64,000 bases of DNA from a virus (lineage: Duplodnaviria; Caudoviricetes): IMG/VR virus record IMGVR_UViG_3300025018_000091, one strand, 5' to 3'. Under the pieces are notes generated by a model that saw only the letters and a list, made by a program, of their open reading frames with translations, made no database searches and had not been told where the DNA came from. Below, piece after piece: positions 1 to 53,779 of the stretch (positions are counted from its first letter, which is position 1; every line of letters begins with the position of its first letter). The position numbers were made by a program, and so were the translations under genes.

Positions 1-641
1 TACACCGAAGTAGTATTAGATCCTAATTGAACTCTATCAAATATATCTACTTGAAGAATATCTACATCTCCAGTATTTGTAGCATTTCTACCTCTAACAA
101 CAGCATCTTCTGTAGCAACATTTGGAATACGAATAATGCCAGATTGCGCAGGATATGTTCCTAATGCCAAATACCCATCAATAGATAATGTTCCAGTAAA
201 AATAGGTAAAGAAGCGCCAATAGTATAACCATCTCCACCAGTATTATATGCAAATTTCCAACCAGAAAGAGTTTCATCCCAAAACATACAAGAATGATCT
301 CTAGGGATAAGACCTGTAGTATATCCTCTAACAGCGGCTAAACCTGTAATTTGTGGCGGAACATCTTGCGTTGTCGCATATGGCGAAGTTGGTGGATGTA
401 TCCAGTCATAACTATTTAAATGGAAAAAATAACCATCACTAGAATTAAGTGGTTTTAAAAAATTATCTATTTTAGATTGAACTATTCTATTAACTATTAT
501 ATTTTCAAGATTAATAGAACTATAGCCGTCAGGACAATATATTGCATTTGAATCTGGTTGATCGTTAACAATCCAATCAACGTAACCAACAGCACCTGGC
601 GCTGCTGTATTATAAGCTCTCATGTAATATTGTATTGGCAT
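1..641 (-). CDS. Virion fibre/structural protein, partial (runs off the left edge; not in the supplied ORF track)
   Basis: Manual translation from ATG at 641 with upstream GGGAGAG: MPIQYYMRAYNTAAPGAVGYVDW...GTYPAQSGIIRIPN...RGRNATNTGDVDILQVD; open for 213 codons to the window edge; contains 4 DGY motifs. Confidence 0.75.
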   Translation of the reverse strand, partial: MPIQYYMRAYNTAAPGAVGYVDWIVNDQPDSNAIYCPDGYSSINLENIIVNRIVQSKIDNFLKPLNSSDGYFFHLNSYDWIHPPTSPYATTQDVPPQITGLAAVRGYTTGLIPRDHSCMFWDETLSGWKFAYNTGGDGYTIGASLPIFTGTLSIDGYLALGTYPAQSGIIRIPNVATEDAVVRGRNATNTGDVDILQVDIFDRVQLGSNTTSV

Positions 642-658
642 TATCTCTCCCTATCCAA

Positions 659-674
659 GATATCTATTTATTAC
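659..674 (-). promoter_or_regulatory. Candidate late-promoter motif GTAAT-N6-ATAT
   Basis: Coding strand GTAATAAATAGATATC, 18 nt upstream of ATG 641; matches a motif seen in several other intergenic gaps. Confidence 0.4.
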
Positions 675-698: not shown

Positions 699-1391
699 TT
701 AGATAGCGATTACATGAATTGTTACAACTGCTGTTCTAACTTCAGCATTATCGTATGTTACAGTTACAGTTAAATCATATGATCCACCATTTAAACTAAC
801 AAAACCATCACCTTCCCAAGTATCACCAGTTTGTGTATATAATTGAGAATCTCCACCATCTAAATTACCAGAAAATAACACAACATGTTCACCACTTTCA
901 ATAGTTCCATAAGCATAAAAAGGAGCGGTTGGATTATACGATGGAGATTCGTCTGTGGGATCAGTTATTGTAATTCCCATCAAATATGTAAACCCAGTAT
1001 TCTCTACTTGGTAAATTGTACTAAATGTTGAAAGCCTAAATGTATCTGTGCTCGTTTGATTCGCCACAAATACAACATCATATCCATCAGTCGATATGCT
1101 AATTGTCATTTCCGTCAATATACCAGAAGCGTTATAAATAGAACCATACCCGTCCAAACCAAGTCCACCAGCAATATAAGCATTTCCAATTTCTCTTACA
1201 ACTAAAGCGTCCAACCAATAAGAATATCCATCAGAAGCTGTTGATTGATTTTGAATAAAACATAACGTATTAATTCTTGTATCTGTATTTGCCGGAACAG
1301 TAAACCTACAGACTTCAACACCATGTGTCGAGGTCACAACCGTTCCTGTAATTAATCTTCCATTTTGTATTGCATATCCATCATTAGGCAT
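699..1391 (-). CDS. Fibre-associated protein: shared N-terminal module plus C-terminal Ig-like domain
   Basis: N-terminus (GTVVTSTHGVEVCRFTVPANTDTRI) aligns by eye with those of 1404..3872 and 3884..4960; C-terminal beta-sandwich pattern (GSYDLTVTVTYD...VVTIHV); 4 DGY. Confidence 0.65.
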   Translation of the reverse strand: MPNDGYAIQNGRLITGTVVTSTHGVEVCRFTVPANTDTRINTLCFIQNQSTASDGYSYWLDALVVREIGNAYIAGGLGLDGYGSIYNASGILTEMTISISTDGYDVVFVANQTSTDTFRLSTFSTIYQVENTGFTYLMGITITDPTDESPSYNPTAPFYAYGTIESGEHVVLFSGNLDGGDSQLYTQTGDTWEGDGFVSLNGGSYDLTVTVTYDNAEVRTAVVTIHVIAI

Positions 1392-1403: not shown

Positions 1404-3872
1404 TCAGGGTGGAGTGTCTTTTATAATATCAGCTTCTTCCATATTTGTCATTGTTCCGTTGAAGCCAACCCCATCTCCCATCTTCCAATATCCTACAAGG
1501 TTTGCTGAACTCGTTAAGTCTGTTGGTATTCCTGCGTTGTATATTGCTTCAACTTCTGATAAGGAAAGAACTTTATCCCAAATTGATATGTCTTTTAAAT
1601 TTCCAATCCAATAATTTTGATTATCAGGTCTTCTTCCAATATTAAAATTAGCCGCATTGGATATTGATAATGTTAAAGTATCGTGTCCTACGGTTGCTGG
1701 AACTAAAACTCCATTCATATAGAATATAACACCAGCTCCTGTTTTGCTTCCATCATAAGTAACAACACCATGTCTCCAAACACTATCTCTGTAACTTCCA
1801 AATCCTGTTGTTGTATTTGTAAAAATATAATTGTTTCCCGCCCCAGCGTCATTTATTAAGTATACTTGAATTCTATGTAAAGAATCAATAAATATAAAAT
1901 ACCCAGTGTATGTAGTACTACCTAAATTTTTTGCTATAATATTAGTATTTGTTCCACCTGTACATTTGAACCAAAAGGACCAAGAACGAGTTTCCGTTCC
2001 GTTTAAATCATGAACATCTCCCATGTCAATAAATTCGTCGGAGCCATCAAATACCATAGAGTTTCCAATATATGTTCTTGACTCAACGTCAGTGATTTCC
2101 ATATTGACCTGAGTTCCATGCAGTCCGTTGCCCGAGAAGTCAGGAACTCCATTTGCTGCAAGACTATAATTTTCTCCACACCTCCACCAAGCCGCAAGAT
2201 TAGCTGCGCAAGATGTTGTAGTTAAATCAATCGGAACCTTATTGTTATAAATTTCTGTTACTTCAGTTGGAGAAAGCTCTTTATCCCATACCGATACGTC
2301 AGAAAGAGAACCTTTATACCATAAATCATTATGATTTCTTGCCCCTAACCTAAAATCACTGGCATTTGCTGCTGTTGCCGATAACGTATCATAATTTGTA
2401 GTTGTTGCAACTGGAGCATTATCTATATAAAAAACAACACCTGCTGCTTTTCCTGTAGAATCTTTTGTTATCATACAATAATGCCAATTATTATCATTGT
2501 ATGAATTATTAGTTTGTATTTCAAGAGTATTTGTAAAATATGTATTTATTTGAAAAAAAGCTATTTTATTAGTATTCGTACAAAGTATTTGATATCCGGG
2601 GGCGCCAGCCGCTACACTAATTTTTGATACAAAAATCCCAGTATGTGTGATTGACCATTTAAACCAAAAACTAATAGAAAAAGCATCGTTATAATCAAAA
2701 TCTAATATATCTCCCATATTTACATATTCGTTTGTTCCACCAAACACTAAAGCTTGACTTCCAGGACTCGCAAACTGAATATCAGAAACTTCCATGTTAG
2801 TTGCTGTTCCATCATATCCATTTGTTGATTCATCAGGAATTACAGGAAACTGATAATCTGAACTATGATCTAAAATAGTTGGATATGTATCTCCATCTCC
2901 ACATCTCCAATAAGCTACCATATTAGAGGCTGATGAAAGGTTCTTTATGTTAGTTGGAATCCCTGAATTATAAATAGCTTCAACTTCAGAAAGAGAAAGC
3001 TCTTTATTATATATAGATGCTTCATCTATGTTACCAATCATATAATCAAGAGTTCCATTCATAGAACCAATGGTGCAAGGCATCGTATCTTGAATAGTTG
3101 ATGTTAAATTATTAATATTTGTAACAGGAGCTTCATATCCCCCGTCAACATAAAAAGCCGTTCCAGAAACATTACTACTTCCATCATAAGTAGCAACAAT
3201 ATGATGCCAATTTCCATCATTCAAAATAGAAGATGTGCTTACTGATAACTGACTTGTATTTGCTACGCTTACAATATCAAATCTAATTGATCCAATAACT
3301 CCCCCAAGTCCTTCTTTTTTCAAACCCCATCCTCTATAATTTCCAGCTGGACCTTCCTTACCAATAAAAAAATTCCAAGGGTTTACATCCGATGTTTTAA
3401 ACCAACAACTAATACTAAAAGCATCAGTCCTCTCAAAACTTAACACATTTCCCATTGTTACAAATTCATTAGTTCCACCAAACAACAAAGAATATCCATC
3501 AATAAATTGTTCAACAGAATAAATTTCCATCGAACATGCTACTCTATATATATTCCCATCCGCCGAAGCTGTTGTGGCATAAATATTATCATTCGTAACA
3601 GCTAAAATTACTTCAAAACCTGATGTTGTTCCTTCTTCATTATACTTAGATACATCTCCAACAATCGTTGCATATCCATCTTGATTATATACATTTGCTG
3701 CTAATTTATAAGAACTGCTTATTTGTCCGTTTACTTTTTGAAATAAACATGTTGCTTCTACCCTTGCAAAAGTTTCCAGTGGAACCGCCCAAGAGCATAC
3801 ATTTACTCCATTAGCTGCCGTTGCAACTGTTCCGGTAGTTTTAATTCCTTGTATTAATTGTCCATCAGCCAT
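1404..3872 (-). CDS. Receptor-binding/fibre protein with three LamG (concanavalin A-like) domains
   Basis: Three repeats of FSISxWFK...WHHxxxTYDG...FYxDG...IG...G.IDExSIYNKELS..EV..IYN; shared N-terminal module. Confidence 0.85.
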   Translation of the reverse strand: MADGQLIQGIKTTGTVATAANGVNVCSWAVPLETFARVEATCLFQKVNGQISSSYKLAANVYNQDGYATIVGDVSKYNEEGTTSGFEVILAVTNDNIYATTASADGNIYRVACSMEIYSVEQFIDGYSLLFGGTNEFVTMGNVLSFERTDAFSISCWFKTSDVNPWNFFIGKEGPAGNYRGWGLKKEGLGGVIGSIRFDIVSVANTSQLSVSTSSILNDGNWHHIVATYDGSSNVSGTAFYVDGGYEAPVTNINNLTSTIQDTMPCTIGSMNGTLDYMIGNIDEASIYNKELSLSEVEAIYNSGIPTNIKNLSSASNMVAYWRCGDGDTYPTILDHSSDYQFPVIPDESTNGYDGTATNMEVSDIQFASPGSQALVFGGTNEYVNMGDILDFDYNDAFSISFWFKWSITHTGIFVSKISVAAGAPGYQILCTNTNKIAFFQINTYFTNTLEIQTNNSYNDNNWHYCMITKDSTGKAAGVVFYIDNAPVATTTNYDTLSATAANASDFRLGARNHNDLWYKGSLSDVSVWDKELSPTEVTEIYNNKVPIDLTTTSCAANLAAWWRCGENYSLAANGVPDFSGNGLHGTQVNMEITDVESRTYIGNSMVFDGSDEFIDMGDVHDLNGTETRSWSFWFKCTGGTNTNIIAKNLGSTTYTGYFIFIDSLHRIQVYLINDAGAGNNYIFTNTTTGFGSYRDSVWRHGVVTYDGSKTGAGVIFYMNGVLVPATVGHDTLTLSISNAANFNIGRRPDNQNYWIGNLKDISIWDKVLSLSEVEAIYNAGIPTDLTSSANLVGYWKMGDGVGFNGTMTNMEEADIIKDTPP

Positions 3873-3883: not shown

Positions 3884-4960
3884 TTACGGAGGTGCATCAG
3901 CAATTATATCTCCAGATTCCATATTAGTCATTGTTCCATTGAAACCAGAATCACTATGATCTAAAATAGTTGGATAAGTGTCTCCATCTCCACATCTCCA
4001 ATAAGCTACCATATTTGAAGCAGATGAAAGATTTTTTAGATTAGTTGGAATCCCTGAATTATAAATCGCTTCAACCTCAGGAAGAGAAAGTTCTTTATTG
4101 TATACTGATGTTTCGTCTATGTTGCCTTCAAATGCATAACCAGTGCCATCCCATTGACCAATTCTAAATGGAGCAGTTGTAATAATAGAGCCTGTTAAAG
4201 TATTTTTCCATATTGTAAGGTCAACAATTTCACCATCAATATAAATATGCATGCCAGATACAAGTGATGATCCATCATAGGTACATATACAATGATGCCA
4301 ATTACCATTATTTATTGTTGCTGTAGTTGTAAAAACCTGAAACTCATTAGTTGATGATGTATTTGATAATAAGAAAGTAATAGCTCCAGTATAAGTACCA
4401 CCATTGAGATATACAGCATAGCCTGCATATGGTGCCGTGCCAGAATTTTTAGCAATAAGAAACTTATCATTTGTAGTTGTTTTACACCACAAACTTATAG
4501 AAAAAGCATCAGTTCTCTCAAAATTCAACACATTTCCCATATTCACATATTCGTTCGTTCCTCCAAACAGCAAAGAATAATAGTTCCCAAATTGTTCAAC
4601 AACATAAATTTCCATAAAACATGTAACTCTATATTCTTCTCCATCTGTTGTTGCCGTTATAACTGATAACGTAGATCCACTTGCAAATAATGTTACAGTC
4701 ATTGCAACAGAACTCTCTTCCGTATTTACAACAGTCGGTCCTGAAACAATTGAAACATCCGCATCGTCTCTTCTAACAGTCGCTATTAATTTATATGAAC
4801 TTTTAGCCGTATTATCGTAAACTTGTTGAACAGTACAATGAACTTCAACCCTTGCAGTAGTATTTATTGGAATACTCCATACACAAACCTCAACACCATT
4901 TGAAGATGTTTGTATACTTCCTGCTGTTTTTCTTCCTAAAATTATATCTCCATCAGCCAT
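3884..4960 (-). CDS. Receptor-binding/fibre protein with one LamG domain (paralog of 1404..3872)
   Basis: FSISLWCKT...WHHCICTYDGS...IDETSVYNKELS; near-identical DNA to part of 1404..3872. Confidence 0.85.
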   Translation of the reverse strand: MADGDIILGRKTAGSIQTSSNGVEVCVWSIPINTTARVEVHCTVQQVYDNTAKSSYKLIATVRRDDADVSIVSGPTVVNTEESSVAMTVTLFASGSTLSVITATTDGEEYRVTCFMEIYVVEQFGNYYSLLFGGTNEYVNMGNVLNFERTDAFSISLWCKTTTNDKFLIAKNSGTAPYAGYAVYLNGGTYTGAITFLLSNTSSTNEFQVFTTTATINNGNWHHCICTYDGSSLVSGMHIYIDGEIVDLTIWKNTLTGSIITTAPFRIGQWDGTGYAFEGNIDETSVYNKELSLPEVEAIYNSGIPTNLKNLSSASNMVAYWRCGDGDTYPTILDHSDSGFNGTMTNMESGDIIADAPP

Positions 4961-4974: not shown

Positions 4975-6063
4975 TTATGCTGGCGCAATGTCAGTTACTG
5001 TTCCACTACTTCCTTTAAATTTTAATGCACCACCCTCAACAAATAAATAACCGCCAGAAGTCGCACTGCCTGTTGGAACTGCATCTACATCTTTAATAAA
5101 AATCGCTCCCTGAGCACCTTGCATATTTGTTCCATTAGCACCATTTATAATTAAGTTACCCATATTGGAATTGCCTGCTTTAAGATAAATATTACCAGCA
5201 GTAAGTCCGTCACCACTCCAAATCAAAATATCACCACCAGCATAAGTATTGGTATAGTCTGATTGTCCAAAAACAATTAATCTTATTCCATTATGAGAAG
5301 ATGAAGGAGCAATTCCAAATACTGGAAGAGGAAAATCTGATTCAATTAATAAATATCCGTCACATATTACAGATGAACCTCCAAATGGTGTTGGAGATGC
5401 ACTAGTAAAAAATATCGGTGCAGTAGCTAAATATAATGTTGTTGGATAAGTATCCCCAGGACCAGCAGGACCTGTAGCTCCTGTAACACCAGCTACTCCT
5501 GTAGGACCAGCTGTTCCTGTAGCTCCTTGAGGTCCCGTTGCGCCTTGAGGTCCAGTAGCTCCAGCTACCCCAGTAGGACCGGCTGTTCCTGTAGCTCCTT
5601 GTGGTCCTGTAACTCCAGCAGGACCAGTAGCTCCAGCAGGACCAGTAGCTCCTGTAGCACCATCAACTCCAGCAGGACCAGTAGCTCCTGTAGCACCATC
5701 AACTCCAGCAGGACCAGTAGCTCCTGTAACTCCAGCAGGACCAGTAGGACCACCATAAGGACCTGTAGCACCTTGTGGTCCAGTAACTCCATCTATTCCA
5801 GCAGAACCGGCAGGTCCAGTAGGACCAGCAGGACCTGTCATTCCAATTCCAGCCGGTCCAGTTGGACCAGCAGCACCAGTAGGTCCAGCAATACCGGCAG
5901 GACCAGCAGGACCAGTTGCTCCAGCGGGACCAGGAGAACCAGTTGGTCCAAAAGATGGACTGCGAGGATCCCAACGTTCTGCAGCTGCATTATAAGCTAA
6001 GATGTATCCATCAGCAGGAACTTCAAAGGAGCCAATAATTGTTTTGTTTTTAGTATTAGCCAT
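4975..6063 (-). CDS. Collagen-like tail/capsid fibre protein
   Basis: About 160 aa of Gly-X-Y triplets ([12 protein letters not shown]); C-terminal GAIFIKD...[21 protein letters not shown] fibre-tip-like motif. Confidence 0.85.
5631..5728. repeat. Exact 36-bp tandem repeat (2.7 copies) in the collagen region
   Basis: ctccagcaggaccagtagctcctgtagcaccatcaa at 5631 and 5667, partial copy at 5703; encodes [12 protein letters not shown]. Confidence 0.9.
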
Positions 6064-7956: not shown

Positions 7957-8511
7957 TTAAAATACTAAATATACTCCTAAAGATGTTGATGATAAAACTT
8001 TAACAGTGGCAGCATAATTAGTAGTAAGTAATCCATCTCCAGAAATTTGAATTTCTACTAATCCAGACCCTAAATGACTAATACTAAATGTATATGGGCT
8101 TATAGATGTACTAGGATATGATGTAATAACATTAGAATAAAAATTTCCAGAATAATAAGTAGCAGTAAATACCATTTGAAAAGCAAATCTTTCATCAAAA
8201 CTATTTTGAATTGCAGTAACAGTTATTGAGTTGGTAGTATTTGCATCTAATTGAATTTGTATTGCTGGAGAGAATGATATTGGATAAGTATCAACTCCAG
8301 TTTCATATGAAGCATAATATACTGTCTCTTCATAAGGCGCTCCAGCGGGACCTGTGGCTCCTGTATCTCCAGCGGGACCTGTGGCTCCTACGGAACCTGT
8401 AGCACCAACCGCACCAGTAGGTCCAGTGGCTCCAGTTTCCACTTCAATTACCGGAACAAGAACATATTTTATTCCATCCCATTTAAGATAGCCAGGCTCA
8501 GGTAAACTCAT
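7957..8511 (-). CDS. Short collagen-containing fibre protein
   Basis: About 11 G-X-Y triplets after PGYLKWDG; C-terminal beta-sandwich; SD-like GAGG upstream. Confidence 0.75.
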   Translation of the reverse strand: MSLPEPGYLKWDGIKYVLVPVIEVETGATGPTGAVGATGSVGATGPAGDTGATGPAGAPYEETVYYASYETGVDTYPISFSPAIQIQLDANTTNSITVTAIQNSFDERFAFQMVFTATYYSGNFYSNVITSYPSTSISPYTFSISHLGSGLVEIQISGDGLLTTNYAATVKVLSSTSLGVYLVF

Positions 8512-26701: not shown

Positions 26702-26704
26702 AAC

Positions 26705-27532: not shown

Positions 27533-27541
27533 ATTCTACCT

Positions 27542-43300: not shown

Positions 43301-44522
43301 ATGGTAATGCATTCAGCCTAAATGGTATTTCGGATACGAAAGCTGGATGTTTTGTACCAACTTGATTATTATTAGGATCAGTAAATATTACGCCACCTAA
43401 TTTTGGTATTGTATTGTCGATATATATAATTGGCGCGTGTTGTAGATTGAAAACATTAATAATAGGAGGTAATGTCTCGCGAGTAGAATCAAGACTGGTA
43501 GATACTTCAACACTGGTTTCGTCTATAACTCTACCCAAATTCTTATATTCATATGTTACAACAACCTTGAGTATATTTTCTACATCAAAATCAGGATCTT
43601 CAAGTATCGAAGTATTTAATTTTACTTGATTATTACTTAATTGATAATAAGTAGATGAATAATCTTGATCATATCGAGAATCAAAAATTTGATAACCTAA
43701 AGTAGTGATATCATAAGTATAAATAGGATTAGCGCATTGTATTGTAAAAACTATACTACTAACCCTAGTAACAGGATTACTTGATAAATTAAGTACAAAA
43801 GTATTGATATTGAATTTGCCGTCTTCACCTGTGGAATCAGCATATAAAGTTTCTGTTATGCTTTGTTTTTGTAGAGTTATTGGATAACTTGGAAATGTAG
43901 TATATGGAAATGATAATTTGGCATTAGTTCCTGTTGGAGTTCTTGCAACACGAATTAATTTATATGCGCCTTCTTCGTTTAATCTATCGAATGGACCAGC
44001 ACCACGAGTTTTTATCTCATCTTCAACATCAATAGATAAATAATTTTCATTCTTTACTAATCCAATATCATACAATGCTTTGGATAAATTGACAGATAAC
44101 GATTGTATATATTTATTTATTACAGTATTAGTGTCGTCTATACTATAGATATTTTCTCGCAAATAATTTAGTAAATATTCTTTAAAAATATTATCTGTTG
44201 GTAATGGTCCAAGTATTATATATTGATTAGATACACCATCTTCAAGAATTCTAGCATCACCATTTAGTGAAATAAATGGATATATTGGAGTGGATACAAA
44301 TTTCAAATAATAATAGCCATATGGAGTTAAAGGCTGACAAACTATGCTTAATATTTGACCACTTATCTTAATTTCTAATACTTCAGATGTGGCGCTTGTA
44401 TCTGTTTCTGACGTAATTAACACATTATACGTTGATAGTTGAGGGGTTAACTCATGAGTAAATTTCACTTCAATATGAGTGCTATCAACTATTTCAACTG
44501 ATACGATTCTAAGGTTTTGCAT
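37359..44522 (-). CDS. Giant baseplate wedge protein (gp7/P2 gpI-like segment) with Ig-like and LamG-like domains
   Basis: Follows baseplate J; YREALMAALSSFIQGPT (tail protein I-like); GSFETWV..HHVAVSW..LFVDG and GSIEFW..WHRIKVSY..LFLDG LamG patterns; 7 DGY. Confidence 0.75.
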   Translation of the reverse strand: MQNLRIVSVEIVDSTHIEVKFTHELTPQLSTYNVLITSETDTSATSEVLEIKISGQILSIVCQPLTPYGYYYLKFVSTPIYPFISLNGDARILEDGVSNQYIILGPLPTDNIFKEYLLNYLRENIYSIDDTNTVINKYIQSLSVNLSKALYDIGLVKNENYLSIDVEDEIKTRGAGPFDRLNEEGAYKLIRVARTPTGTNAKLSFPYTTFPSYPITLQKQSITETLYADSTGEDGKFNINTFVLNLSSNPVTRVSSIVFTIQCANPIYTYDITTLGYQIFDSRYDQDYSSTYYQLSNNQVKLNTSILEDPDFDVENILKVVVTYEYKNLGRVIDETSVEVSTSLDSTRETLPPIINVFNLQHAPIIYIDNTIPKLGGVIFTDPNNNQVGTKHPAFVSEIPFRLNALPSSIGQYSIDYETGTVYVYGADINNDGTGAFPPLATYKYRYTYQSEIDYVYDYDSLELVALPNGSLVDFSGTVKFSYEEVFIPGVDYQSALHQEAMSERTDNRLVALNVVKTENYPITNVFRVYNETSGEIYNITRWNDNKIYYKYQNPPRINAQEGERATFKDEVNEMMFVTDTLTNSGSQRIFKIPLNNNMLVSATEDGIGYAFNSGIVFSKSNIFVTERWFDRRQTVSVNLDILQNIGEYLIDYVNGVVYCAVSTSQDNVVGYITYKTNHISPTYPHLISVDDIYYRIGALNAKSKTFSYLLFEDGSIVPSTLDYGDELYLNGTTTAPYYLYGGDIGVFIDSSFVSGVTNQVKFVRAIYEMNDLKSSTKPINFASSSISSDYNISVDTLSSQIFDNVLFDGTNFYVNINENIPYISSNITYTFSVIRVSDSQELWDSSGTVVPGNPLKLILSGYGSPVLGDSVSITYSFTIKNLSTIMVDYNKGDYFVDYTYLADEIILSYEYGDNVLDFRSTNSVSENTEYYVSYKAGALRDALYRNFGNLVDIPELTTFNIDFDRERYREALMAALSSFIQGPTIPAMKNIGKTISHITPEITESVFLGWSLGNSLLTPQGISTTGAFQLLPAKFNNGVLVNSSDQTITFPINSNIKLEEGSFETWVVPQWNGLDNDAELTFNILKNGSTIDSSEIFIGTSEIHPVINNGLFTINKNTILDGYPNRNKDGVFIYYDKDTSGDFYRWYIQVIDGYVSSPSSTYKIKLTTPGTVYDAKSIVSPKPSNLSMFTGTNSITINITGGSSLDSGITFLSDFPHYLLDFGESALRNRVSIFKDSGGYLNFRVIDKDKIPYIVSTDISSWKAQDKHHVAVSWKLNTINSRDEMHLFVDGFEVPNIIKFSQKLQPYLHEKFRTVDPEEILGLSNRDIISGTDLVTILDGYTVTSSINFSAYNIYSGDLIFIDEIGFDTSGYTIDTVYGQTLTLLQPMPYLLTNGRFSVNRTEYTVDSNIDIAPNIQVTTISSMLSGSDLSGTIGTNIVTSAITNFTTEDVLAGYSIRIDDSSLPVTYVITQVSGNSLTITDNLPVGLSGASFNIYSNDETEIPGMRATRPSYSVSKDGYYNNILTISNSVFADDLVLIRTLGLNHRKVKKQYYVWSDEVENILMTRMPPPISLDELNITKLILNDGYTSAIGPANSTLIAGEFHSINFPCTHPSNSQQGRTISVTISGNNTDFSTPVEVTINGGVSYYTVSETLYFTDYGTMDFSNLYISINHINVVARPINSSKNALVIDVREKYPITRSEASGLVPVIRYSYQIGTGTTLYSSGDNTVTDGYYTFNDHCVDNYLVIQSPLVAAGFYKILAVSDDKTTLTVETTSVGPYPPSPIPTFTDGVYQILNVNDYRSGLQNGFITLEVNVLPSIPYLLSHGFYEVEYHTYARIKLDMPRDNVYLGSDMFGSNQVNSIIDQVKIYSSMLTDTRVGEQVTSNQKSVTQDFNSLKPLKKDSDTLMLINFDEYPFTNSADFYINTYADKQHFHSSAKVNENFDDSLAIIHEPMILSNDGILDTRKQGSIEFWTSPLYDTANDPITRFYFDATSAIIEEAVSTDLVSVKLSNSINRVLSVTLKSGDPNIDYFAGGKVEIDTQRAVRETYTSSSTTTVQVNLPILQVISVTIPGDYSNVDYFNEGTIGTDNKTIYLNKALPSSNTVVSVTYQTTQNNNVTLNTQVIRLNKKLPAQKSHVIVKYLPKGVQGDRIALYKDEFGYINFGISASGTDYVVRAPTRWVRNTWHRIKVSYKLNGGQGRDEISLFLDGYQYGNDSSILFGSGLLFGGSPAVMGSVRVGHGASIVGNIRFKDPINTLHIGSQYTGANKLFGLLNNLRISNISRPVYSPFNEPLDVNYNSNLNVVYPVTADLYTTFLQDSDVTNIKNEDFTTIINRNTGSFDFSINIIDSFGIVNDSIKVQKVLEKLIRILKPANSKVYIQYTR

Positions 44523-47500
44523 TATCTGGTCTCAGTATTAATGAGTATTGTGTCTGGAGAAAAATACTCGTCTTTTTGTGCTTGTATTATTAGTAATTGC
44601 CCGACATTACCTGCTTTATTAAAATGTAATATTCTTGCTCTAGCTATTCCAGGTACGGCTTGTGCCACATTGATTAATGTTGGAGCATCTACTACCGTTC
44701 CAAGTGATAAAGATGTAAGTGTCGATGTTAATTGGCTGCGTAAATCTTGCAATACAGTATCTTCAGAACTAGTATAATCAGAAGAAATAACAACATTCAT
44801 AGTTAAATCTACCAATACGATTTTAGCCGCCCTAACTAATACGTCCGCATTTATTGGTCTTGTATTTTCGATATTAAACGTAGTGTCGGCAATTAGCTGA
44901 TTATAGTTATATCGAATAGATATTCTTTCATTTTGCTTTGGTGCTAAATAATCATAAAAGATTTTATATCTAGATCCTAAAGCTGGCTGAGTAAATGATG
45001 ACGCAGTAAACCTAGTTGATTGCGACGTTCTAAATCCACTAGAGATATAGATCTTATTAATCAACGCAAACTTCTTATTAGTATATAACGTTCCATTTCT
45101 AGTATAAGATATATTTTCTATATCATTATCTGTTACATAATAAAAAGTTGCTCTTAATTTATCACCAATCATTGGTAAGTTTCTTGTAGATAAATTCATT
45201 GTGTTATTCTGTGTTGATGGTAAAATAAACTCAGAGTTCTGCAATGATGAATCTGCCAATGTATCTAATAAGTATAATAAATTATTTTGTATTGTTGTGT
45301 TTATAACATCATACGTTGATAATGCTGATAATACTTCACTACTATTTGCACTAACAGTTGATACTCTTTCTAATTTGATTAGCTTTGCTAATCTTACATT
45401 AGATGGTACAGATGTAGAAGAACTAATATCTAAAGCTTTACGTAAAGCTTCTGACAAATTTAATTGTAATCCATTAGCGGTTGCAGTAAAGATAATATCA
45501 GTAGCCTTTGTGATAGATGTTCCACTTACAGACATAACTCCAGTGCTAACTACTTGATCAATAGTTGTACAATTCAATCTGGTTTGTGCCCTACGTAAGT
45601 TGTTAAAATTATAGAACATAACAAAAACACCATCATTATTATTAGCGCTAATACTGCTAGGTAACAACAATCTATTATTAGAAATTTGTATTGTTCCTGA
45701 ATAATTCCATATTTCTTTTCCGTCTAAAACTCTAATAATTGAGATTTGATCGTATGTTATATGATCTAATTCATTAGATATCGTTATTTTATTATTTGTT
45801 GAGTTATACGATAAGATATCATATAATCCGTTATTATTTGGATCTGTTGCACCAGAAATTATTAGCTTCTTAGATGTTAAATCTGCTTGTGAAGCAAAAC
45901 TTATGGTAGAACTACTTACAATACCTGTACCAGTTCCTACAGTTAAATATCCATCAGTTACTGAAAATAGCTCTATATCTGTATTAGGTTCTATTATAGT
46001 GAATGTTAAACCAGATGCTTGAGCCACAAATTTATTTATAGATACCATAAATCTACTGGTAAGAGGCTCAATAGATAATGTATCTACTCTATTTTTAATT
46101 ATTATATTACTAAAACTATATGGCTGATATCTTCTTAAATCTGTAGCATAATATACAACTAAACATTTATCATTAAGCGCGGGAATGTTGTATCCAGTAA
46201 AAATAAGCTGATAATTACCCGGTGTACTTGTTGCAATAGTTCCTGGATTTTCAGAGTTCCATAACTCTAGATTATCTGATAACCTAATAACAGAAATTAT
46301 TTGACCAGTAGATAATGAAAATTCTGTACTGTTAATAGCTAATTCTACATAAAATTGACTGCTTAGGTTTTGCTGTACTGTAGCATTTTCTCTTCTAGAT
46401 ATATTTGTAATACTAAAGTTATTAAATCCCGTATTATTTGATAATGTAAACCCATTTCCAGTTCTACTACATGGTAATGATGTTGTGGCTGAAGAAAACA
46501 GATCAGTTACTGCAGCTACATATGTTACTTTTAATAAAATAGATGTGGCTAATGTATCAATTAATGATGCAGGTATAGTTATCTGTGTTCCGCTAATACT
46601 TCCATTAGTTGTGTCAGAATAAAATACATCGATGCTATTCATATAAACAGTTACAATGTCTCCAACTTCTACTACACAATCAGTTGGTAAGATAATAGTA
46701 ATATTATATAGAACTTGAATTCCAACGACAGTTGTTTCATTAATAATAGTTCCATTCCCCTCAGAAGTATTATATAGTTCTATATTGCTATTTTTAATAG
46801 TTATAGAATCTATAGTCTCTGCTGATACTGAATGATTTCTTACTATTACCGCTAGTCTATTAACATATACGCCTGATGTAATAGTTTCTACATACGTATC
46901 TGCACTAACAAATGTTTTTGCGGATACAATTGAGCTTATACTGTGTGTAGATGTTCCTACAAAAAAGTTATTACTAACATTTTTCTCAAACCAAATATTT
47001 TCATCTGTAATCATTGAGGAATATCCCCAATCAACGCTGTCAGTAACTGATCGAGGATTAGATGTATATTCTAAGCCATCATAGTCAGAATATTGATCAT
47101 AAGTTATTATCCAATTATAATCAACCTGTAATACATCGCTTGGAGATGGTAATGTATTTCCTGATATTTTTATTCTACCAGTTGTATTATATGTTCCTGT
47201 AGCATCTAGATTTTGATTTGTGATAATATACCTTTCACCAGTATTAACATTAAATACTCTAGTAACATTTGTTGCAGGATAATGTAATAATTGTATTACT
47301 GACCTATCATAAGTAATTGTACTATTCTCATTATTTATTGAAATAAACTGTTGAGCTTTAGGTATACTTGAAACATCTGGAAAAGATACATTATCTTGAC
47401 CATTAAATTGAGATTTTACCCTATCTTCTTGATATAAAGATACACGATCTGAAATCCAATGAAAAGTATCAAATCCCCAAGGACCACCACTATAAGCCCC

Positions 47501-48619
47501 AGTATCTTTAAGGAGTTCATAATTACCAGAAATACGACCATAGGAATCTACTGTTTTCTCTTTAAAATTTGAACCACTAATTGAGCCTGTAACTTGTAGC
47601 AAATTTTCTACTGGCTGTTTTGGTAAAACTCCATTTGCAATATTATCAAGTCTTTTTCTATTAATAGTTTTATTTTTATCTCCCGTAATCTGTCCTAATA
47701 CAATATTATTTTTAGAACTAGACTGGTCATTATTGTTGCTTTTATCAACATAAATAATACTATCTGTGTTTTCAACTAAAGTAGATCCTAAGACGACAAC
47801 ATCAACTTTTCCACCAGAACCTTCTGACACTACTGTTCTAGAGCCGTCTGCATTAACAGTTACGGTTGTTCCGTCACGAGTCATTAATGAATCACCGGGC
47901 TCAATAACTACAGCATCAGATACTCCTGTTGTGCTTAGCGCTGTATTTAAATATCCTAATGCAGTTCCAACACTAGATCCGCTAAACGCCGCCAATACTC
48001 TGTTTCTAAAAGAAACATCATCTTCTTGGTCTGCGCCGCCGTTAAATGCACTAATATTTGTAACATTACTAACACCAGGAATAGATGTTCTATTCAAATA
48101 ATAACTACCTATATTACCAATTGAACCCGCAGAAGATGCAGCAACAGTAACTTCAACAGCATATTCATCAGAAATTCCTAAAAGATCTAATTGTGTTCTA
48201 TATTTTGTAGCTACAGATCTATAGTAATTAGAAGCTAAAGGAGTAACAGATAAGCCATTTGATACTGAGAAAGAAAATCCATTAGATGCGATTATGACAT
48301 CACCAGAATTAATGTTAACGGGTGCATTTAAGCTAGAAAATGTTAGTAAAGCGATTCCGGATGATGATGTTGATCTTTTTCTTACAATTCCAAAATTTTT
48401 AGCTAATTGGTTAAGTTCATTACCAATAACTAACCTAAAAGATTGTTTATTAGAAATCCCAGATAATTCATCATATAATAAAGATAGCTGCGTTGCCGGT
48501 GCTTCTACAAATAAATCTCTAGCAACAGAACCAGGTGTAATATCTAAATCTGGTTGAGCAATTCTATAAAAATCGATTAAACTTAATATAATCTCATTAA
48601 CGCTACGGATCGTTACCAT
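44522..48619 (-). CDS. Baseplate J-like wedge protein (T4 gp6/Mu gp47-like), greatly extended
   Basis: D..PGSVARDLF, NGGADQEDD..FR.R.L, TALSTTGVSDA, C-terminal LG......LI...Q.VPG; about 800 aa of inserted beta-domains. Confidence 0.88.
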   Translation of the reverse strand: MVTIRSVNEIILSLIDFYRIAQPDLDITPGSVARDLFVEAPATQLSLLYDELSGISNKQSFRLVIGNELNQLAKNFGIVRKRSTSSSGIALLTFSSLNAPVNINSGDVIIASNGFSFSVSNGLSVTPLASNYYRSVATKYRTQLDLLGISDEYAVEVTVAASSAGSIGNIGSYYLNRTSIPGVSNVTNISAFNGGADQEDDVSFRNRVLAAFSGSSVGTALGYLNTALSTTGVSDAVVIEPGDSLMTRDGTTVTVNADGSRTVVSEGSGGKVDVVVLGSTLVENTDSIIYVDKSNNNDQSSSKNNIVLGQITGDKNKTINRKRLDNIANGVLPKQPVENLLQVTGSISGSNFKEKTVDSYGRISGNYELLKDTGAYSGGPWGFDTFHWISDRVSLYQEDRVKSQFNGQDNVSFPDVSSIPKAQQFISINNENSTITYDRSVIQLLHYPATNVTRVFNVNTGERYIITNQNLDATGTYNTTGRIKISGNTLPSPSDVLQVDYNWIITYDQYSDYDGLEYTSNPRSVTDSVDWGYSSMITDENIWFEKNVSNNFFVGTSTHSISSIVSAKTFVSADTYVETITSGVYVNRLAVIVRNHSVSAETIDSITIKNSNIELYNTSEGNGTIINETTVVGIQVLYNITIILPTDCVVEVGDIVTVYMNSIDVFYSDTTNGSISGTQITIPASLIDTLATSILLKVTYVAAVTDLFSSATTSLPCSRTGNGFTLSNNTGFNNFSITNISRRENATVQQNLSSQFYVELAINSTEFSLSTGQIISVIRLSDNLELWNSENPGTIATSTPGNYQLIFTGYNIPALNDKCLVVYYATDLRRYQPYSFSNIIIKNRVDTLSIEPLTSRFMVSINKFVAQASGLTFTIIEPNTDIELFSVTDGYLTVGTGTGIVSSSTISFASQADLTSKKLIISGATDPNNNGLYDILSYNSTNNKITISNELDHITYDQISIIRVLDGKEIWNYSGTIQISNNRLLLPSSISANNNDGVFVMFYNFNNLRRAQTRLNCTTIDQVVSTGVMSVSGTSITKATDIIFTATANGLQLNLSEALRKALDISSSTSVPSNVRLAKLIKLERVSTVSANSSEVLSALSTYDVINTTIQNNLLYLLDTLADSSLQNSEFILPSTQNNTMNLSTRNLPMIGDKLRATFYYVTDNDIENISYTRNGTLYTNKKFALINKIYISSGFRTSQSTRFTASSFTQPALGSRYKIFYDYLAPKQNERISIRYNYNQLIADTTFNIENTRPINADVLVRAAKIVLVDLTMNVVISSDYTSSEDTVLQDLRSQLTSTLTSLSLGTVVDAPTLINVAQAVPGIARARILHFNKAGNVGQLLIIQAQKDEYFSPDTILINTETR

Positions 48620-48621
48620 AA

Positions 48622-49389
48622 TTATCCTCTATTCAAGTGCCTATTTCTATATGTACCATCTATCCAATTTTGTTTTGAAGATAGCGGTCTTAAATTACTT
48701 AAACTCCAACAACTTTTAAACTTTTCATCTTCCATAGTCGTATATTGAAATTCACTATGAGGAATTATATGATCAATTTGCCAAGTCCAGGTTGTCTGAT
48801 CATTATCGTTCCATGTTAATGCATTATATTTGCCCCAATTATTCCAAGTCATCCAGTTCTCAAATTGTACCTCTAAATGTAGCTTCAATTCATCTATAGA
48901 ATAAGGTAATTTAGCGAGAATAGATAAACCATTCTTGCATTTACCATTCTTTTTAATCATAGAATATACCATATTTGAAACTCGTCTTCTTAGTTTAAAA
49001 ATCGGATTAGATCTTTCTCGATTTTTTTGATATCCTAATTTTCTTTTATTTATTATATCTTTATTTTTTCTATAAAACTCTTTCTTTTTTTCAGATATTT
49101 TTTCATTATTATCGAAATAATATTCTTTATACTTTTTGAGGATTTGTTCTTTGTTGATATTATAGTACTCTTTCTTTTTAGACTTTATTATACTATCATT
49201 ATCTATTCTATACTTATTTACTTTAGATCTTATTGCAGCGGCATGCTGTTCATAATATATTTTTTTAGACTCTTTCTGACACATTTTACACATAGAACGA
49301 TAATATATAGTTCCAATTTTAGTTTTTCTAATATTAAACTCAGACAAACATTTATCTAAACCGCATTTTTTACATATTTTAGTATTCAT
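48622..49389 (-). CDS. Free-standing HNH-type homing endonuclease, paralog 3
   Basis: KICKKC...EF...CKMC, WMTWNNWG...WQIDHIIP...CWSLSNLRP...N; inserted between the gp25-like gene and baseplate J. Confidence 0.8.
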   Translation of the reverse strand: MNTKICKKCGLDKCLSEFNIRKTKIGTIYYRSMCKMCQKESKKIYYEQHAAAIRSKVNKYRIDNDSIIKSKKKEYYNINKEQILKKYKEYYFDNNEKISEKKKEFYRKNKDIINKRKLGYQKNRERSNPIFKLRRRVSNMVYSMIKKNGKCKNGLSILAKLPYSIDELKLHLEVQFENWMTWNNWGKYNALTWNDNDQTTWTWQIDHIIPHSEFQYTTMEDEKFKSCWSLSNLRPLSSKQNWIDGTYRNRHLNRG

Positions 49390-49817
49390 ATTGTTGATAC
49401 CCTGAAATTAGTAGTAATAGGTTTAGACCCTTTTGTTAAAGCTTTAATTCTTACATCAAACAATCTTGGATCTATTTGATTTCTAACTATAGATATATCC
49501 AAAATAGCACCAAGTTGTTCATCAGCACTTACTCTTTGAAAAGATTTTACTTGTAAATCTTGTATTGTCTTTAAATTATTTAATGCTTTATTTAATTGAG
49601 CTTTAGACATTTGGACTAATACTGAATTTTGATTTGGATTACCAACAATAGTTCTGGATAGAAATGATCCATACCACGGATGCTGAGGATTTGACCCAGC
49701 AGTGGTTAAACACATTTTTAGGATACCTTGAATTAATTTTTCAGAATCAATTACAGTTTGTAATTTACCCTGATTAATAACTAAATCTCCCTTATTTACC
49801 TTTAGATCAAAAGACAT
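49386..49817 (-). CDS. Baseplate wedge subunit, gp25/Mu gp46-like
   Basis: DL....GDLVI..G.L..V...EKL.Q....L.T..GS...HP.YGS.L; sits upstream of baseplate J. Confidence 0.85.
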   Translation of the reverse strand: MSFDLKVNKGDLVINQGKLQTVIDSEKLIQGILKMCLTTAGSNPQHPWYGSFLSRTIVGNPNQNSVLVQMSKAQLNKALNNLKTIQDLQVKSFQRVSADEQLGAILDISIVRNQIDPRLFDVRIKALTKGSKPITTNFRVSTI

Positions 49818-49880: not shown

Positions 49881-51563
49881 TTATATCGAACTATTATTTT
49901 GACGTTTATCTAAATAGAGTTTATCCATCAGGTTAAAAAAGTCTTTTACTGTATTCGTTAAAGTTCCCATACATTGAGATAAATTATCTGTTCTTACAGC
50001 ATCAGGCTTATTTAACAGGGTTTTCATTCTTTCAAAAGCATCTTTATCTAAAAATCCTAACAAATCTTCTATTGGCATGATATACAAAGATGCAATAATT
50101 GCTAAAATATCACATAAACCAAGACCGCTAAATTCTCCCATTATCATTTCAATAATTTGTAGAGCATCACAAGCTTTTTTCATAGTATTATTGCGTGCGA
50201 ATGTTAATGATTTAACAGTATCATCATTAATATCTCCACAAGAAGCGTTCACTTCAGGATTAAATATCATTGCATTACTTGGAAATATGGGTTTTCTCGT
50301 AATTGATTCATATCCTACGCTTGCAGCTGTTTGACCTATAAATTTTTCTATAGAAGCTCTAATAAGATCTGCATCATAACTTGTAATAAATTTTGGATTA
50401 TTAGCTAATTCTTTAGTTATAATAATAGGTCTAACAGAAGACCCTCCTTCTGGACCAGTCGTTGATGGTATTGGTATCCAATAATAGAACTTTTGAGCCT
50501 CTTCTATAGTATTTTGAGCTTGCACTAATTTATTAATCATAGCTCGCATAATATTTAAATATTGAATAAATCTTTGTTGCTCAGTTAATTTATAATCTTT
50601 AGTTATTCTTTCAATAAGACTTTCATCAGCAATAGACGGTACATTTTCTATATAATCTTTTATATTTTGTAATTCACCAGTAATATTAGATGTATCATCA
50701 GTGACACGATTATAAATTATCGTTTCTAACATTGGTATTTCAACTGTAACAGTTTCCGATGCAATTAGATTTTTAGTATCTAAAACAAATGGGACTGCCA
50801 ACATTTTATCTATATTTACACTTTCAGAATATCTTGGATCAACTAAAAATGGATATAAAATATGAGTTCTATCAAAAGCAGTCTTAGGTAATGTTGGCGT
50901 AACCCCATCATCTCCAATATATTCTGTTAAACTTGGTTTATTATTACCAACATGCCCATTTTTATCTATTGTATATGTTTGTTTTAATGAATCTAAATCA
51001 GCAGAAAAAACTTCTGGAGTTGTTACTTTATCTAATGGATCTATAAAATCTCTTTTATTCATACTCGATAAAGCTAGAACTGAAGCATTTATAGATGTAT
51101 TAATATTGAAAATATTAGCAAAGGTTTGATATGTCGATTCTCTAGTATCAAATAACTTAATTAATGATGAAGTATATAATACCGTTGATGCAATTTTGAT
51201 TTTATCTATTTTTTTGATTTTTTTTGTTTCATCAAAAATAGAATCATAACCAGGATTATAGAAATCTGTACCATCATATACTGGAAACCCAATCATTCTA
51301 TAAAATGCGTGACATCTACTCTCTTGATATGTATTTTCTGCTTTTAATGAATTTCGTAATGAATTATCTTTTATAGCCTTTACTATATTTGTAGGGGTTA
51401 TACCATTAATACTCTTTTTACTCCTATAATTATCAATTCCATTTTGTTTAACTTTACTCGGTTTATTAGGGTTAACAAAACTATAGAACGCATCTTTAAC
51501 ATTAAAATCGAATCTTTGACGATTTTTATAGTTATTTTGATTTGTTTTATTTGAATCAACCAT
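49881..51563 (-). CDS. Hypothetical baseplate-region protein
   Basis: 560-aa ORF within the tail operon; TAATG-coupled. Confidence 0.75.
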   Translation of the reverse strand: MVDSNKTNQNNYKNRQRFDFNVKDAFYSFVNPNKPSKVKQNGIDNYRSKKSINGITPTNIVKAIKDNSLRNSLKAENTYQESRCHAFYRMIGFPVYDGTDFYNPGYDSIFDETKKIKKIDKIKIASTVLYTSSLIKLFDTRESTYQTFANIFNINTSINASVLALSSMNKRDFIDPLDKVTTPEVFSADLDSLKQTYTIDKNGHVGNNKPSLTEYIGDDGVTPTLPKTAFDRTHILYPFLVDPRYSESVNIDKMLAVPFVLDTKNLIASETVTVEIPMLETIIYNRVTDDTSNITGELQNIKDYIENVPSIADESLIERITKDYKLTEQQRFIQYLNIMRAMINKLVQAQNTIEEAQKFYYWIPIPSTTGPEGGSSVRPIIITKELANNPKFITSYDADLIRASIEKFIGQTAASVGYESITRKPIFPSNAMIFNPEVNASCGDINDDTVKSLTFARNNTMKKACDALQIIEMIMGEFSGLGLCDILAIIASLYIMPIEDLLGFLDKDAFERMKTLLNKPDAVRTDNLSQCMGTLTNTVKDFFNLMDKLYLDKRQNNSSI

Positions 51564-53779
51564 TAGCTACCATCCCTACCATTACCGCCATCTCTCGATG
51601 CATCCCCCTCATCTCTTCTTGGTTGACCAGTTTCATCACCAACAGAAACAGATCCAAGTCCAGCTGAAGCATAGATAAATTGATAATCTAGCTCTTGTAA
51701 TGTATGCGTTGGTGGTAAGTTAATATCACTCGGAATATCATTGGTACAGAAGATATTATCGTCAAAAGAAATCATTAACTTACCTTTACCAGGTGTTTTG
51801 CTTGTAATGTCAGCAGTAAATACTTGATAGCCATCATAATTAAAACTAGTAATCTTACCAAAAGTAGAATGTGGTTTTATCTTTAAAGCAATATCAGATG
51901 CAACTTCTGGCGTTAATCCAGAAGTTATTGGATATCCATTTCTTTCATTAAGATTTACTGTAACCTTAATTGGCTTTGTTGTAAACTGTTTTTGTGGTTC
52001 CAAAGTAAAATTACTTTGGCAAGGATCAAACCCTAATCCAACCATAGTTCCAAGAGTTTTGTTTGTATCATCTTTTAATTTTTGAAGACATGTTAAACTC
52101 GTTGCTTGGAATTCTGCAACACCAAGAACTGTAAAGTTACTTCTTAATGCAGATACCGCCGTTAATAAACATTCTTGAGCTTTATTTGGATTAGGAAATC
52201 CATTTTCTTCTTTCAATGCATCATTTAATATCGCTAATTTAAGCCCAGCATCACCAGCAATAACATTAGATATAAATTCTCTATCTACTGCTAATTCAGG
52301 CAAACAACCAAGGGTTACTAAATCCTTAGCAATTAATACAGATCTATTTGGTTTAAATGTATATTCAACATTAGAGTATAGATAACCGTCTGTTGGCTGT
52401 GGGTTAGGAGAAATTAATGTAAGCTCTTGAGGCATATGTAAGAAATTACCTAGTGTAGCTTGAATTGTTCCAGGTGTTATTCCATCAGGAAGATATACTT
52501 TCAAAATGGTATTACCATCATCTTCATATCCCTCACCTCTAACTAATTTCATTACACCATTTGTAATTGTAGAACTATCATTTTTATAATCTAATAGATT
52601 TCTAGTTGGAGCCATAACAACAATACAGTCTTTAAATCTAATGTAACGAGCAGCTCCTGCGCTCTCTCCATAACGTCCCCAATTTGCAGGTTCATAAAAT
52701 AATCTTAAGTCTACTGTATAGGCAGCTTGTTTAGGAGATGTTGTATCATTATATGATGAGTCTGTTGGGAAAAACACTGGTTTAGGAGTATTAATAACCT
52801 TACCATCAGAGTTTACTGTTGGAATATCATAACCATCTACTATATTAATAAACGCCTGAGCAATAGATTGATCTGGATCATATATTTGCCAGCTTTCTGT
52901 TCTATAATCAACGGTAAAGAATGGGTTTGGACCAGGTAATGCCAAAGATGTTTGTATACTTAATTGATTATAATATTGTAATTTACCAGTAATTCTAGTA
53001 TAATCATTCTTAACAATGACTGGACATACATCTGGAGTACAACAACCATCTTCATCTGTTGAATCAGTATCATCACAAGGAGGAATTGCAAAAACAAGAC
53101 TTAGCATATCTCTAAAAATATCGATTATAATATTAAATATAGCTAATAGAACAAACAGGTTTTGGAAGATACAAAGTAATGCTCCAAGTTTTTTAGCAAT
53201 CGCCAATATAGAATTCTCATCCACTCTAGTAGCAGCTTTATATAAAGCTTTAAGATTTCTCAAAATCATCTTAATAAGCTTTATAATCTGTTGAATAATA
53301 TACTCAATCAAAGCTAAAAGCAATAACAATAACGATATGATCATAATAATTAAAGCAAATAACGGAAATAGATTTAGGAAATCTGGAAGACAATTTCTAA
53401 ATAATCTTTTTAATGCTCTAGTCAATTTAAAAGGATTCTTAATTGCACATAACACTTCAATAATACATAAAAGTAATTTCAATATTGGTAAGAAAAACTT
53501 ATACATCATTAAATAAGGCATAAATTGATCTAGCAATTTCATTATGGCATCAAAGATATCTTTACCAAAATTTGGATTCAATGATGGTTTAAGAGCACCT
53601 GGTGGAATAAGCATTTGAAGCTTATTTAATAAATCCAACAAATCTTCTGGAAATCCTTCAGGAAAAGGATTAATATTGGGAAGTTTTAAAGAAAAGGGTG
53701 TCCCAAAACCAGGAATGGACGGACCGCTAGGACCATCTGGGATATCAAAAGATACATCGTTTGGAGAACAAGGACTCAT
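51563..53779 (-). CDS. Baseplate-region protein with long hydrophobic helices and a C-terminal Ig-like domain
   Basis: LFPLFALIIMIISLLLLLLALIEYII and LLCIFQNLFVLLAIFNIII; Cys-rich; 3 DGY. Confidence 0.7.
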   Translation of the reverse strand: MSPCSPNDVSFDIPDGPSGPSIPGFGTPFSLKLPNINPFPEGFPEDLLDLLNKLQMLIPPGALKPSLNPNFGKDIFDAIMKLLDQFMPYLMMYKFFLPILKLLLCIIEVLCAIKNPFKLTRALKRLFRNCLPDFLNLFPLFALIIMIISLLLLLLALIEYIIQQIIKLIKMILRNLKALYKAATRVDENSILAIAKKLGALLCIFQNLFVLLAIFNIIIDIFRDMLSLVFAIPPCDDTDSTDEDGCCTPDVCPVIVKNDYTRITGKLQYYNQLSIQTSLALPGPNPFFTVDYRTESWQIYDPDQSIAQAFINIVDGYDIPTVNSDGKVINTPKPVFFPTDSSYNDTTSPKQAAYTVDLRLFYEPANWGRYGESAGAARYIRFKDCIVVMAPTRNLLDYKNDSSTITNGVMKLVRGEGYEDDGNTILKVYLPDGITPGTIQATLGNFLHMPQELTLISPNPQPTDGYLYSNVEYTFKPNRSVLIAKDLVTLGCLPELAVDREFISNVIAGDAGLKLAILNDALKEENGFPNPNKAQECLLTAVSALRSNFTVLGVAEFQATSLTCLQKLKDDTNKTLGTMVGLGFDPCQSNFTLEPQKQFTTKPIKVTVNLNERNGYPITSGLTPEVASDIALKIKPHSTFGKITSFNYDGYQVFTADITSKTPGKGKLMISFDDNIFCTNDIPSDINLPPTHTLQELDYQFIYASAGLGSVSVGDETGQPRRDEGDASRDGGNGRDGS

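Follow-up and report, generated by a model that had tools for sequence, protein, structure and literature searches.

The cytoplasmic HMW1C/NGT enzymes act at the sequon N-X-S/T and PglB at D/E-X-N-X-S/T, and glycogenin and Photorhabdus PaTox are cytoplasmic glycosyltransferases that act on tyrosine. Bacteroidetes have a general O-glycosylation motif, D-(S/T)-(A/I/L/V/M/T) (PMC8698959). Tyr O-glycosylation is known from the S-layer glycoproteins of Paenibacillus alvei and Thermoanaerobacter (PMC2943079), and phage-encoded glycosyltransferases glycosylate mycobacteriophage virions (Freeman et al. 2023, cited in PMC12619734). Here we explore the tripeptide Asp-Gly-Tyr (DGY) in the tail proteins encoded by IMG/VR virus record IMGVR_UViG_3300025018_000091, of which a stretch of 64,000 nucleotides was analysed (the window, bases 16834-80833 of a single 138,879-base virus contig). 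We conclude that DGY is a short, order-specific surface element that is kept dense by selection on outward-facing virion proteins and domains, throughout a clade of uncultured huge phages of about 350-480 kb.

As far as the mycobacteriophage work is summarised in the citing paper, it resembles the present case in that the phages' own glycosyltransferase genes lie near structural genes and act on surface proteins of the virion that are synthesised in the cytoplasm. It differs in that the C-terminal stretches of capsid and tail-tube subunits bear the glycans, not a scattered tripeptide, whereas DGY marks fibres, baseplate, sheath surface and neck. Furthermore, those phages are small siphoviruses of Actinobacteria for which modification has been demonstrated, whereas a modification of DGY is a proposal. 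Bacterial sequons are likewise linear motifs of three to five residues, one of them often acidic, that mark surface proteins and whose sites turn over while the load is kept. Their acceptor, however, is Asn, Ser or Thr where it would be Tyr here, D-G-Y matches no known sequon, and no oligosaccharyltransferase is evident in this phage. The S-layer proteins, glycogenin and PaTox show that the Tyr hydroxyl can serve as glycan acceptor in bacteria and in the cytoplasm, but S-layer proteins receive their glycans en bloc at a few sites, outside the membrane, and have no known DGY consensus. The classical tail-fibre hairpin repeat (…P-x-x-[GN]-Q-V-L-x-W…, present in relative G009) shares position, spacing and fibre domain with DGY, but its N/G-Q turn gives way to D-G-Y in this phage and most of its clade. 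The initial annotation of the window, made from the sequence, remarked that no described DGY sequon system was known from phages; this is consistent with our literature search, in which no publication on a DGY motif or Asp-Gly-Tyr in phages was found in the searchable literature.

Enrichment and placement of DGY

Translation of the window gave 45 open reading frames (ORFs) of at least 100 amino acids (aa). Nine virion ORFs hold 38 DGY in 8,065 aa (4, 4, 2, 2, 10, 5, 7, 1 and 3 copies in the order of Table 1), the nine other virion ORFs hold none in 4,697 aa (0/21 DG), and non-virion ORFs hold three in 7,655 aa (3/31 DG), which reproduces every per-ORF DGY count of the initial annotation. DGY makes up 38 of the 92 DGx tripeptides in the nine ORFs (41%, against an earlier estimate of about 40%) and 38 of their 65 xGY (58%), with NGY and DGF present 3 and 2 times. 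Within-protein shuffles yielded 2.2 ± 1.5 copies with a maximum of 10 (5,000 trials), matching the expectation of about two copies, and the excess over chance in the outward-facing proteins is about 17-fold. When all tripeptides of the proteome were counted, DGY was the top over-represented one (38 against a Markov-1 expectation of 9.4, Poisson p = 2e-12), and the excess holds in a DG-conditioned enrichment test (binomial p = 6e-25). Asp before and Tyr after the same Gly are associated with an odds ratio of 13, and Fisher tests separate the nine ORFs from the other virion ORFs (p = 7e-5) and from the non-virion ORFs (p = 9e-4).

The signal resides in the peptide and in its exact order. The whole contig has 89 DGY among 288 DG, compared with 5-12 occurrences for each of the five permutations, and the near-equivalents EGY (7), NGY (7), DGF (8) and DGW (3) stay at background. 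The nucleotide word GAYGGNTAY occurs 93 times on the contig, 89 of these in coding frame as DGY, and the proportions of GAT/GAC, GGA/GGT/GGC/GGG and TAT/TAC at DGY are those found elsewhere in the genome, in agreement with the proposal that selection acts on the peptide and not on a DNA repeat. In the flanks, W or G is favoured after Tyr and K, R, E and M are scarce nearby; no extended motif was found there beyond these preferences. Close tandem pairs (DGYDGY, DGYxDGY, DGYxxDGY and also DGYGDGY) are found repeatedly, both here and in relatives. The array DGYYADGYYADGYTIDGY belongs to a 122-aa protein that has one more DGY besides; the orthologues of this protein in G004 and G009 (110-111 aa) contain just one DGY each, so that the array looks like a recent pentapeptide expansion. 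As first noticed, the motif is superimposed on unrelated folds; it was found on the hairpins of fibres, on beta-helix rungs, on LamG, on the insertion domains of the sheath and on collagen-like fibres.

Outer and inner proteins were compared by means of orthologous families built from relatives. Six outer families (Baseplate_J-like, 738-aa, sheath, 281-aa, 1,963-aa and 448-aa proteins) have DGY at 285 of 923 DG (31%), against 4 of 513 (0.8%) in twelve inner or core families, which include gp25-like, tube-initiator-like, 1,656-aa, 696-aa and tube-region proteins. That inner proteins are depleted of DGY below background is suggestive only (3/230 distinct states, p = 0.08). In 45 sheath orthologues all 86 DGY lie in residues 1-630, which contain the extra insertion domains (86/273 DG), versus none at the 48 DG of the conserved C-terminal core. 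An AlphaFold2 model of the sheath (pLDDT, the predicted local distance difference test, 83.6) matches solved contractile sheaths with Z of about 33 over ~320 aligned residues, which is the size of the conserved core. Minimal sheaths such as that of R-pyocin consist of this core, and the extra domains of phage sheaths face outward. The outer confinement claimed by the initial annotation is thus upheld by both the families and the sheath, but its word "restricted" was slightly too strong, given two peripheral-type ORFs that lack DGY, a LamG protein and a short collagen-like fibre. Two of its assignments had to be revised: the ORF at 48622..49389, which it placed among the virion proteins, turned out to be endonuclease VII-like, and the DGY ascribed to a dockerin-like loop (LSDGYLL) lies at residue 767, outside a dockerin match that spans residues 601-627 and is itself below the Pfam cut-off.

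The element is not peculiar to one genome. About 65 related IMG/VR loci were fetched via their Baseplate_J and sheath proteins (sheath identity 49-93%, GC 28-48%); DGY/DG is mostly about 0.2-0.35 there, compared with a Tyr content of 3-4.5%, and DGY is by far the top tripeptide in these loci too. Among 120 homologues of the 600-aa fibre, with identities of 33-100%, DGY accounts for 1,101 of 1,418 DG (78%) and for 1,101 of 1,290 GY. Values are much lower in the T4 structural region (AF158101, 75000-124999; 10/69 DG or 14%, Tyr being the commonest residue after DG), in a phiKZ region (5/60, 8%) and in a more distant huge-phage sheath lineage used as outgroup (2/30 and 2/24, 7-8%), so that the strong signal is clade-specific and the weak tendency general. 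Outgroup material consists of contigs of only 19-28 kb for relatives of the DGY-poor sheath lineage P0158 and of fragments for relatives of the low-DGY fibre P0036; no outgroup loci were obtained for P0213. The T4 figure can be read as a weak general DGY tendency in myovirus structural proteins; a general property of phage structural proteins was rejected as the source of the signal, T4 and phiKZ showing this weak tendency only.

Table 1. DGY-bearing genes, contrast genes and other features. Coordinates are window positions unless a contig or locus is named; DGY is given as a fraction of DG.
Feature	Coordinates	Strand	DGY or remark
Fibre-like protein, N-terminal 213 aa of 815 aa	3..641	-	4/4 in window part, 10/13 in full protein
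230-aa protein, no known family	699..1391	-	4/6
822-aa protein, three LamG (Laminin_G_3) domains	1404..3872	-	2/12, both N-terminal to first LamG
362-aa collagen-like tail fibre	4975..6063	-	2/6; PADGYIL at classical fibre motif position
600-aa tailspike-like fibre with beta-helix	6068..7870	-	10/13
1,348-aa baseplate-distal protein	33265..37311	-	5/18
2,387-aa giant virion protein, C-terminal LamG-like stretch	37359..44522	-	7/17
1,365-aa Baseplate_J-like wedge, long extension	44522..48619	-	one DGY, residue 889, outside J core
738-aa baseplate-region protein	51563..53779	-	3/10
LamG protein	3884..4960	-	0/6
Short collagen-like fibre	7957..8511	-	0/2
Inner tail/baseplate contrast genes: gp25-like (49386..49817), 560 aa, 119 aa, 696 aa, 1,656 aa, tube-initiator-like (61231..62121), Gly-rich 769 aa	49386..64000	-	0/14; set interrupted by the DGY-bearing 738-aa gene
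401-aa collagen-like fibre	outside window		7/7
1,963-aa protein	outside window		7/13
522-aa protein	outside window		5/9
Sheath	outside window		3/8
122-aa protein	L002:19261-19629 (contig 100060..100428)	-	5/5
Three small tandem paralogues, 186-205 aa	L001:10890-11450, 11466-12083, 12097-12678	+	one DGY each; conserved N-terminal stretch
Sugar cassette (candidate reader, inside tail module)	25745..31722	-	
NDP-sugar (nucleoside diphosphate sugar) 4,6-dehydratase/epimerase	25745..26701	-	
GT2 (glycosyltransferase family 2), first	26705..27532	-	
Conserved 335-aa cassette protein	27542..28549	-	51-53% identity even in GT2-less genomes
DUF4379 zinc-finger protein	28638..29618	-	
GT2, second	29594..30280	-	
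GT4/GT1	30595..31722	-	
Class I ribonucleotide reductase large subunit	12168..14684	-	PHROG 84, E = 5e-100; between fibre block and replication-type genes
Tubulin/FtsZ-family protein, TubZ-like C-terminal domain (PhuZ/TubZ-type)	23319..24674	-	70-75% identity kept in G004 and G009
GIY-YIG + NUMOD3 homing-endonuclease-like gene	25044..25778	-	adjoins sugar cassette
Endonuclease VII-like gene, homing-endonuclease-like	48622..49389	-	inserted between baseplate genes

Site turnover and the behaviour of the tyrosine

DGY sites turn over while the load per protein is maintained. Some are fixed: DGY fills one column of the sheath in 41 of the 45 sequences, and three columns of the fibre in 35-37 of 37. 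The majority are sparse: 14 of the 17 DGY columns of the sheath occur in at most 20% of sequences, as do 25 of the 30 in the 1,963-aa protein, which yet has a mean of 4.6 DGY per protein. The tripeptide is gained and lost as a unit, LGT, QGS, LGS, TAT and NGQ each being found aligned against DGY. It arises mainly where a Gly already stood, since xGx is the commonest aligned alternative.

DGY had also been reported to stand where fibres usually have their classical sequence, and the alignments agree: in a fibre hairpin repeat, a relative has PTLNQVLGWDGLAW and this phage MPLDGYHLTWNDTDGYW. A low-DGY fibre subgroup has VND, ANE, NAQ or NND at otherwise invariant DGY columns. In the beta-helix, DGY takes the place of the three residues before the conserved repeat Tyr, ADGYYS aligning with TGDYS, SGNYS or SAIYS of sister rungs. 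In the AlphaFold2 models, Asp and Gly are usually predicted in a loop and Tyr opens the next strand (fibre residues 144, 154 and 193; sheath residue 147), and three DGY sites are placed in beta-helix rungs.

In order to characterise the Tyr, 17 DGY columns with a Tyr majority were compared with 181 other Tyr-majority columns of the same alignments; this test was used because counting alternatives once per column gave only a weak polar bias. Phe makes up 1.5% of all cells in the DGY Tyr columns and 10.9% in the other Tyr columns, F/(Y+F) being 0.019 and 0.123 (p = 4e-21, uncorrected for relatedness). F, W or H account for 14% of the non-Tyr residues in the DGY columns versus 62% elsewhere, and the commonest replacements are D, Q, S, N and T as opposed to F, H, L, N and S. 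To judge from these substitutions, DGY tyrosines are unlike packing tyrosines. Since polar residues are tolerated, the position is probably exposed, substitution serving as a proxy here; and since an aromatic at a DGY column must be Tyr and not Phe, the hydroxyl matters. The Asp position behaves as an ordinary Asp column and is uninformative.

A candidate reader and competing explanations

A cassette of sugar genes lies inside the tail module, with the tubulin-like gene on one side and the 1,348-aa baseplate-distal protein on the other. Of 17 related records, 16 have a homologue of the GT4, including all seven with a completeness of at least 90%; most records also have two GT2 genes no more than a few kb away from the GT4. 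Three relatives, G004 (100% complete), G009 and G017, lack GT2 but keep epimerase, 335-aa protein and GT4. Within their size class, these three show the fewest copies of the DGY word on the main strand, and their distal fibres are DGY-poor (2/15 DG). Because they form one subclade of the sheath tree, the absence of GT2 represents one loss event and does not prove linkage, and the correlation between GT2 hits and DGY count in nine near-complete genomes (Spearman rho = 0.81) is to be read with the same caution. The 335-aa protein, for which no match was found in Pfam, NCBIfam, PDB sequences or named ESM Atlas clusters, is possibly an unrecognised pathway enzyme. In G007 and G012 (the records of loci L060 and L069) the GT2 domains are N-terminal in frames of 831 and 703 aa instead of forming proteins of about 250 aa; these frames are possibly fusion enzymes.

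We favour the reading that DGY is a sequon-like site which some factor acting in trans recognises during infection, and put its probability at roughly 0.4; the best candidate for that factor is the sugar cassette. In favour of this reading are the order specificity, the peptide-level nature and clade-wide extent of the signal, its outer placement, site turnover under a maintained load, the tandem arrays, the behaviour of the Tyr, the cassette between the tail genes and the precedents named above. We infer the existence of such a reader, its glycosyltransferase nature and Tyr as its acceptor. The Tyr hydroxyl would receive a glycan from the phage's own soluble cassette (NDP-sugar dehydratase/epimerase, GT4 and usually two GT2), Asp and Gly would provide recognition and an accessible turn, and the outcome would be a sugar coat over fibres, baseplate periphery, sheath surface and neck. 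The fully specified version, in which DGY is the sequon of a phage-encoded cytoplasmic Tyr O-glycosylation that coats the whole outer tail surface with a deoxyhexose-containing glycan, is a more tentative proposal and less likely than not. Several observations weigh against a glycosylation sequon. We know of no Tyr-directed glycosyltransferase with a tripeptide sequon. T4 has a weak DGY excess without any such system. Several strictly conserved sites, at a loop-to-strand junction (fibre 37/37, sheath 41/45), also have the look of a structural element. GT4 is a core gene of the related records, so its presence does not discriminate, and the baseplate, sheath and neck orthologues of the three GT2-less genomes still have DGY at 18 of 68 DG (26%) versus 39% in this phage. 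The three are a single subclade, and its GT2-bearing sisters G008 and G013 are nearly as low. Finally, phage glycosyltransferases often target DNA or host glycans instead (PMC12619734).

Much of the evidence would be shared by an unmodified surface motif that functions without any enzyme, for instance by binding host polysaccharide or other ligands weakly at hot-spots, by forming metal sites from Tyr-O and Asp-COO along the fibre axis, or by stapling subunits together through hydrogen bonds. It predicts outer location, turnover and the need for a Tyr hydroxyl just as a sequon does, dispenses with a postulated enzyme, and suits the conserved DGY of the repeated fibre hairpin, where classical fibres hold a conserved NQV/GQV; the iron-binding HxH repeats of the T4 gp37 fibre are a precedent for a short repeated ligand motif. 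We regard it as a serious rival, only a little less probable than the sequon-like reading. It leaves unexplained the exact D-G-Y order on many unrelated folds with NGY, EGY and DGW unused, the tandem arrays of the 122-aa protein and the restriction to this clade. A structural cap, in which D-G forms a turn, Tyr starts the beta-strand and the element spreads through the lineage's beta-rich virion proteins by descent and module recombination, would account for the loop-to-strand placement in the models, for the origin at existing Gly residues and for the weak excess in T4 structural proteins. It appears improbable all the same. The physics of turns is the same everywhere, whereas the excess is clade-specific and exceeds that of T4 or phiKZ by a factor of 3-10. 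Phe does not stand in for Tyr, whose replacements are polar, Asp and Tyr are gained jointly and not stepwise, and beta-rich inner proteins have no DGY. Pairs 3-5 residues apart cannot both form hairpin turns, and the tandem arrays (DGYYADGYYADGYTIDGY, DGYDGY, DGYGDGY) imply that not all DGY are hairpin turns. Clade specificity, the exclusion of N, E, F and W, joint gain of Asp and Tyr, arrays and inner absence together make a universal turn preference insufficient. A generic beta-hairpin DG turn was likewise rejected, since near-equivalents are not interchangeable and DGY represents 41-78% of DG here versus 14% in T4 and 8% in phiKZ.

It is more doubtful still that DGY serves for docking or processing by another phage protein, for example a decoration protein, a chaperone of fibre assembly or a DGY-recognising protease. 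A trans-acting reader of this type would suit specificity and turnover, and most of the roughly 444-kb genome lies off the contig and could encode it. Against this, no candidate factor was identified, about 90 sites on more than 20 proteins are many for stoichiometric docking, and cleavage at so many sites would fragment the fibres. An artefact, whether from composition, from repeats at the DNA level or from paralogy, can practically be dismissed as the source of the signal. Some sites do lie in paralogues (KYYTL.GGLTDGYWTE in two small ORFs is an example), but flanks are diverse, composition and paralogy are ruled out by the shuffles, Markov-1, DG-conditioned tests and permutation controls, and a DNA-level repeat or diversity-generating mutagenesis by the reading frame (89/93) and background codon use. 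This leaves an element that is selected for what it displays at the surface, with the sequon-like site and the unmodified functional motif as the two readings in serious contention.

A DGY mark on the outer surface of this clade points to an as yet undescribed system of recognition or modification. Were DGY a Tyr sequon, it would have no precedent as a tripeptide Tyr sequon in any organism or as a virion-wide glycosylation code among phages. It would bring a new acceptor chemistry and enzyme specificity to prokaryotic glycobiology, would provide a portable tag with which proteins can be glycosylated at chosen sites, and would help to account for the way in which virions that are very large and diffuse slowly shield or target their appendages. 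An unmodified motif would still be a rare case of convergent rewriting of many unrelated folds with one tripeptide. In either case, DGY is of practical use as a predictor of outward orientation for proteins and domains of these uncultured phages that are still uncharacterised.

The phage and its neighbouring genes

CheckV completeness of the contig is 32%. Because the 600-aa fibre protein is also found on a 444,127-base contig and IMG/VR relatives are contigs of 200-480 kb, the contig is taken as a fragment of an uncultured huge phage of myovirus type (roughly 444 kb). Recognisable genes encode a Baseplate_J-like wedge, gp25-like and tube-initiator-like proteins, a contractile sheath, collagen-like and LamG-bearing fibres and a beta-helix tailspike-like fibre. 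The genes of the window are all on the minus strand, at a GC content of about 31%. No close cultured relative was present in the phage collection: the fibre had no match, and the only sheath match was to an Eggerthella phage, with 29% identity over the core.

The three small tandem paralogues, two of which share the DGY context GGLTDGYWTE, form the sole plus-strand block among the fibre genes. The two homing-endonuclease-like genes (25044..25778 and 48622..49389) both sit within conserved modules.

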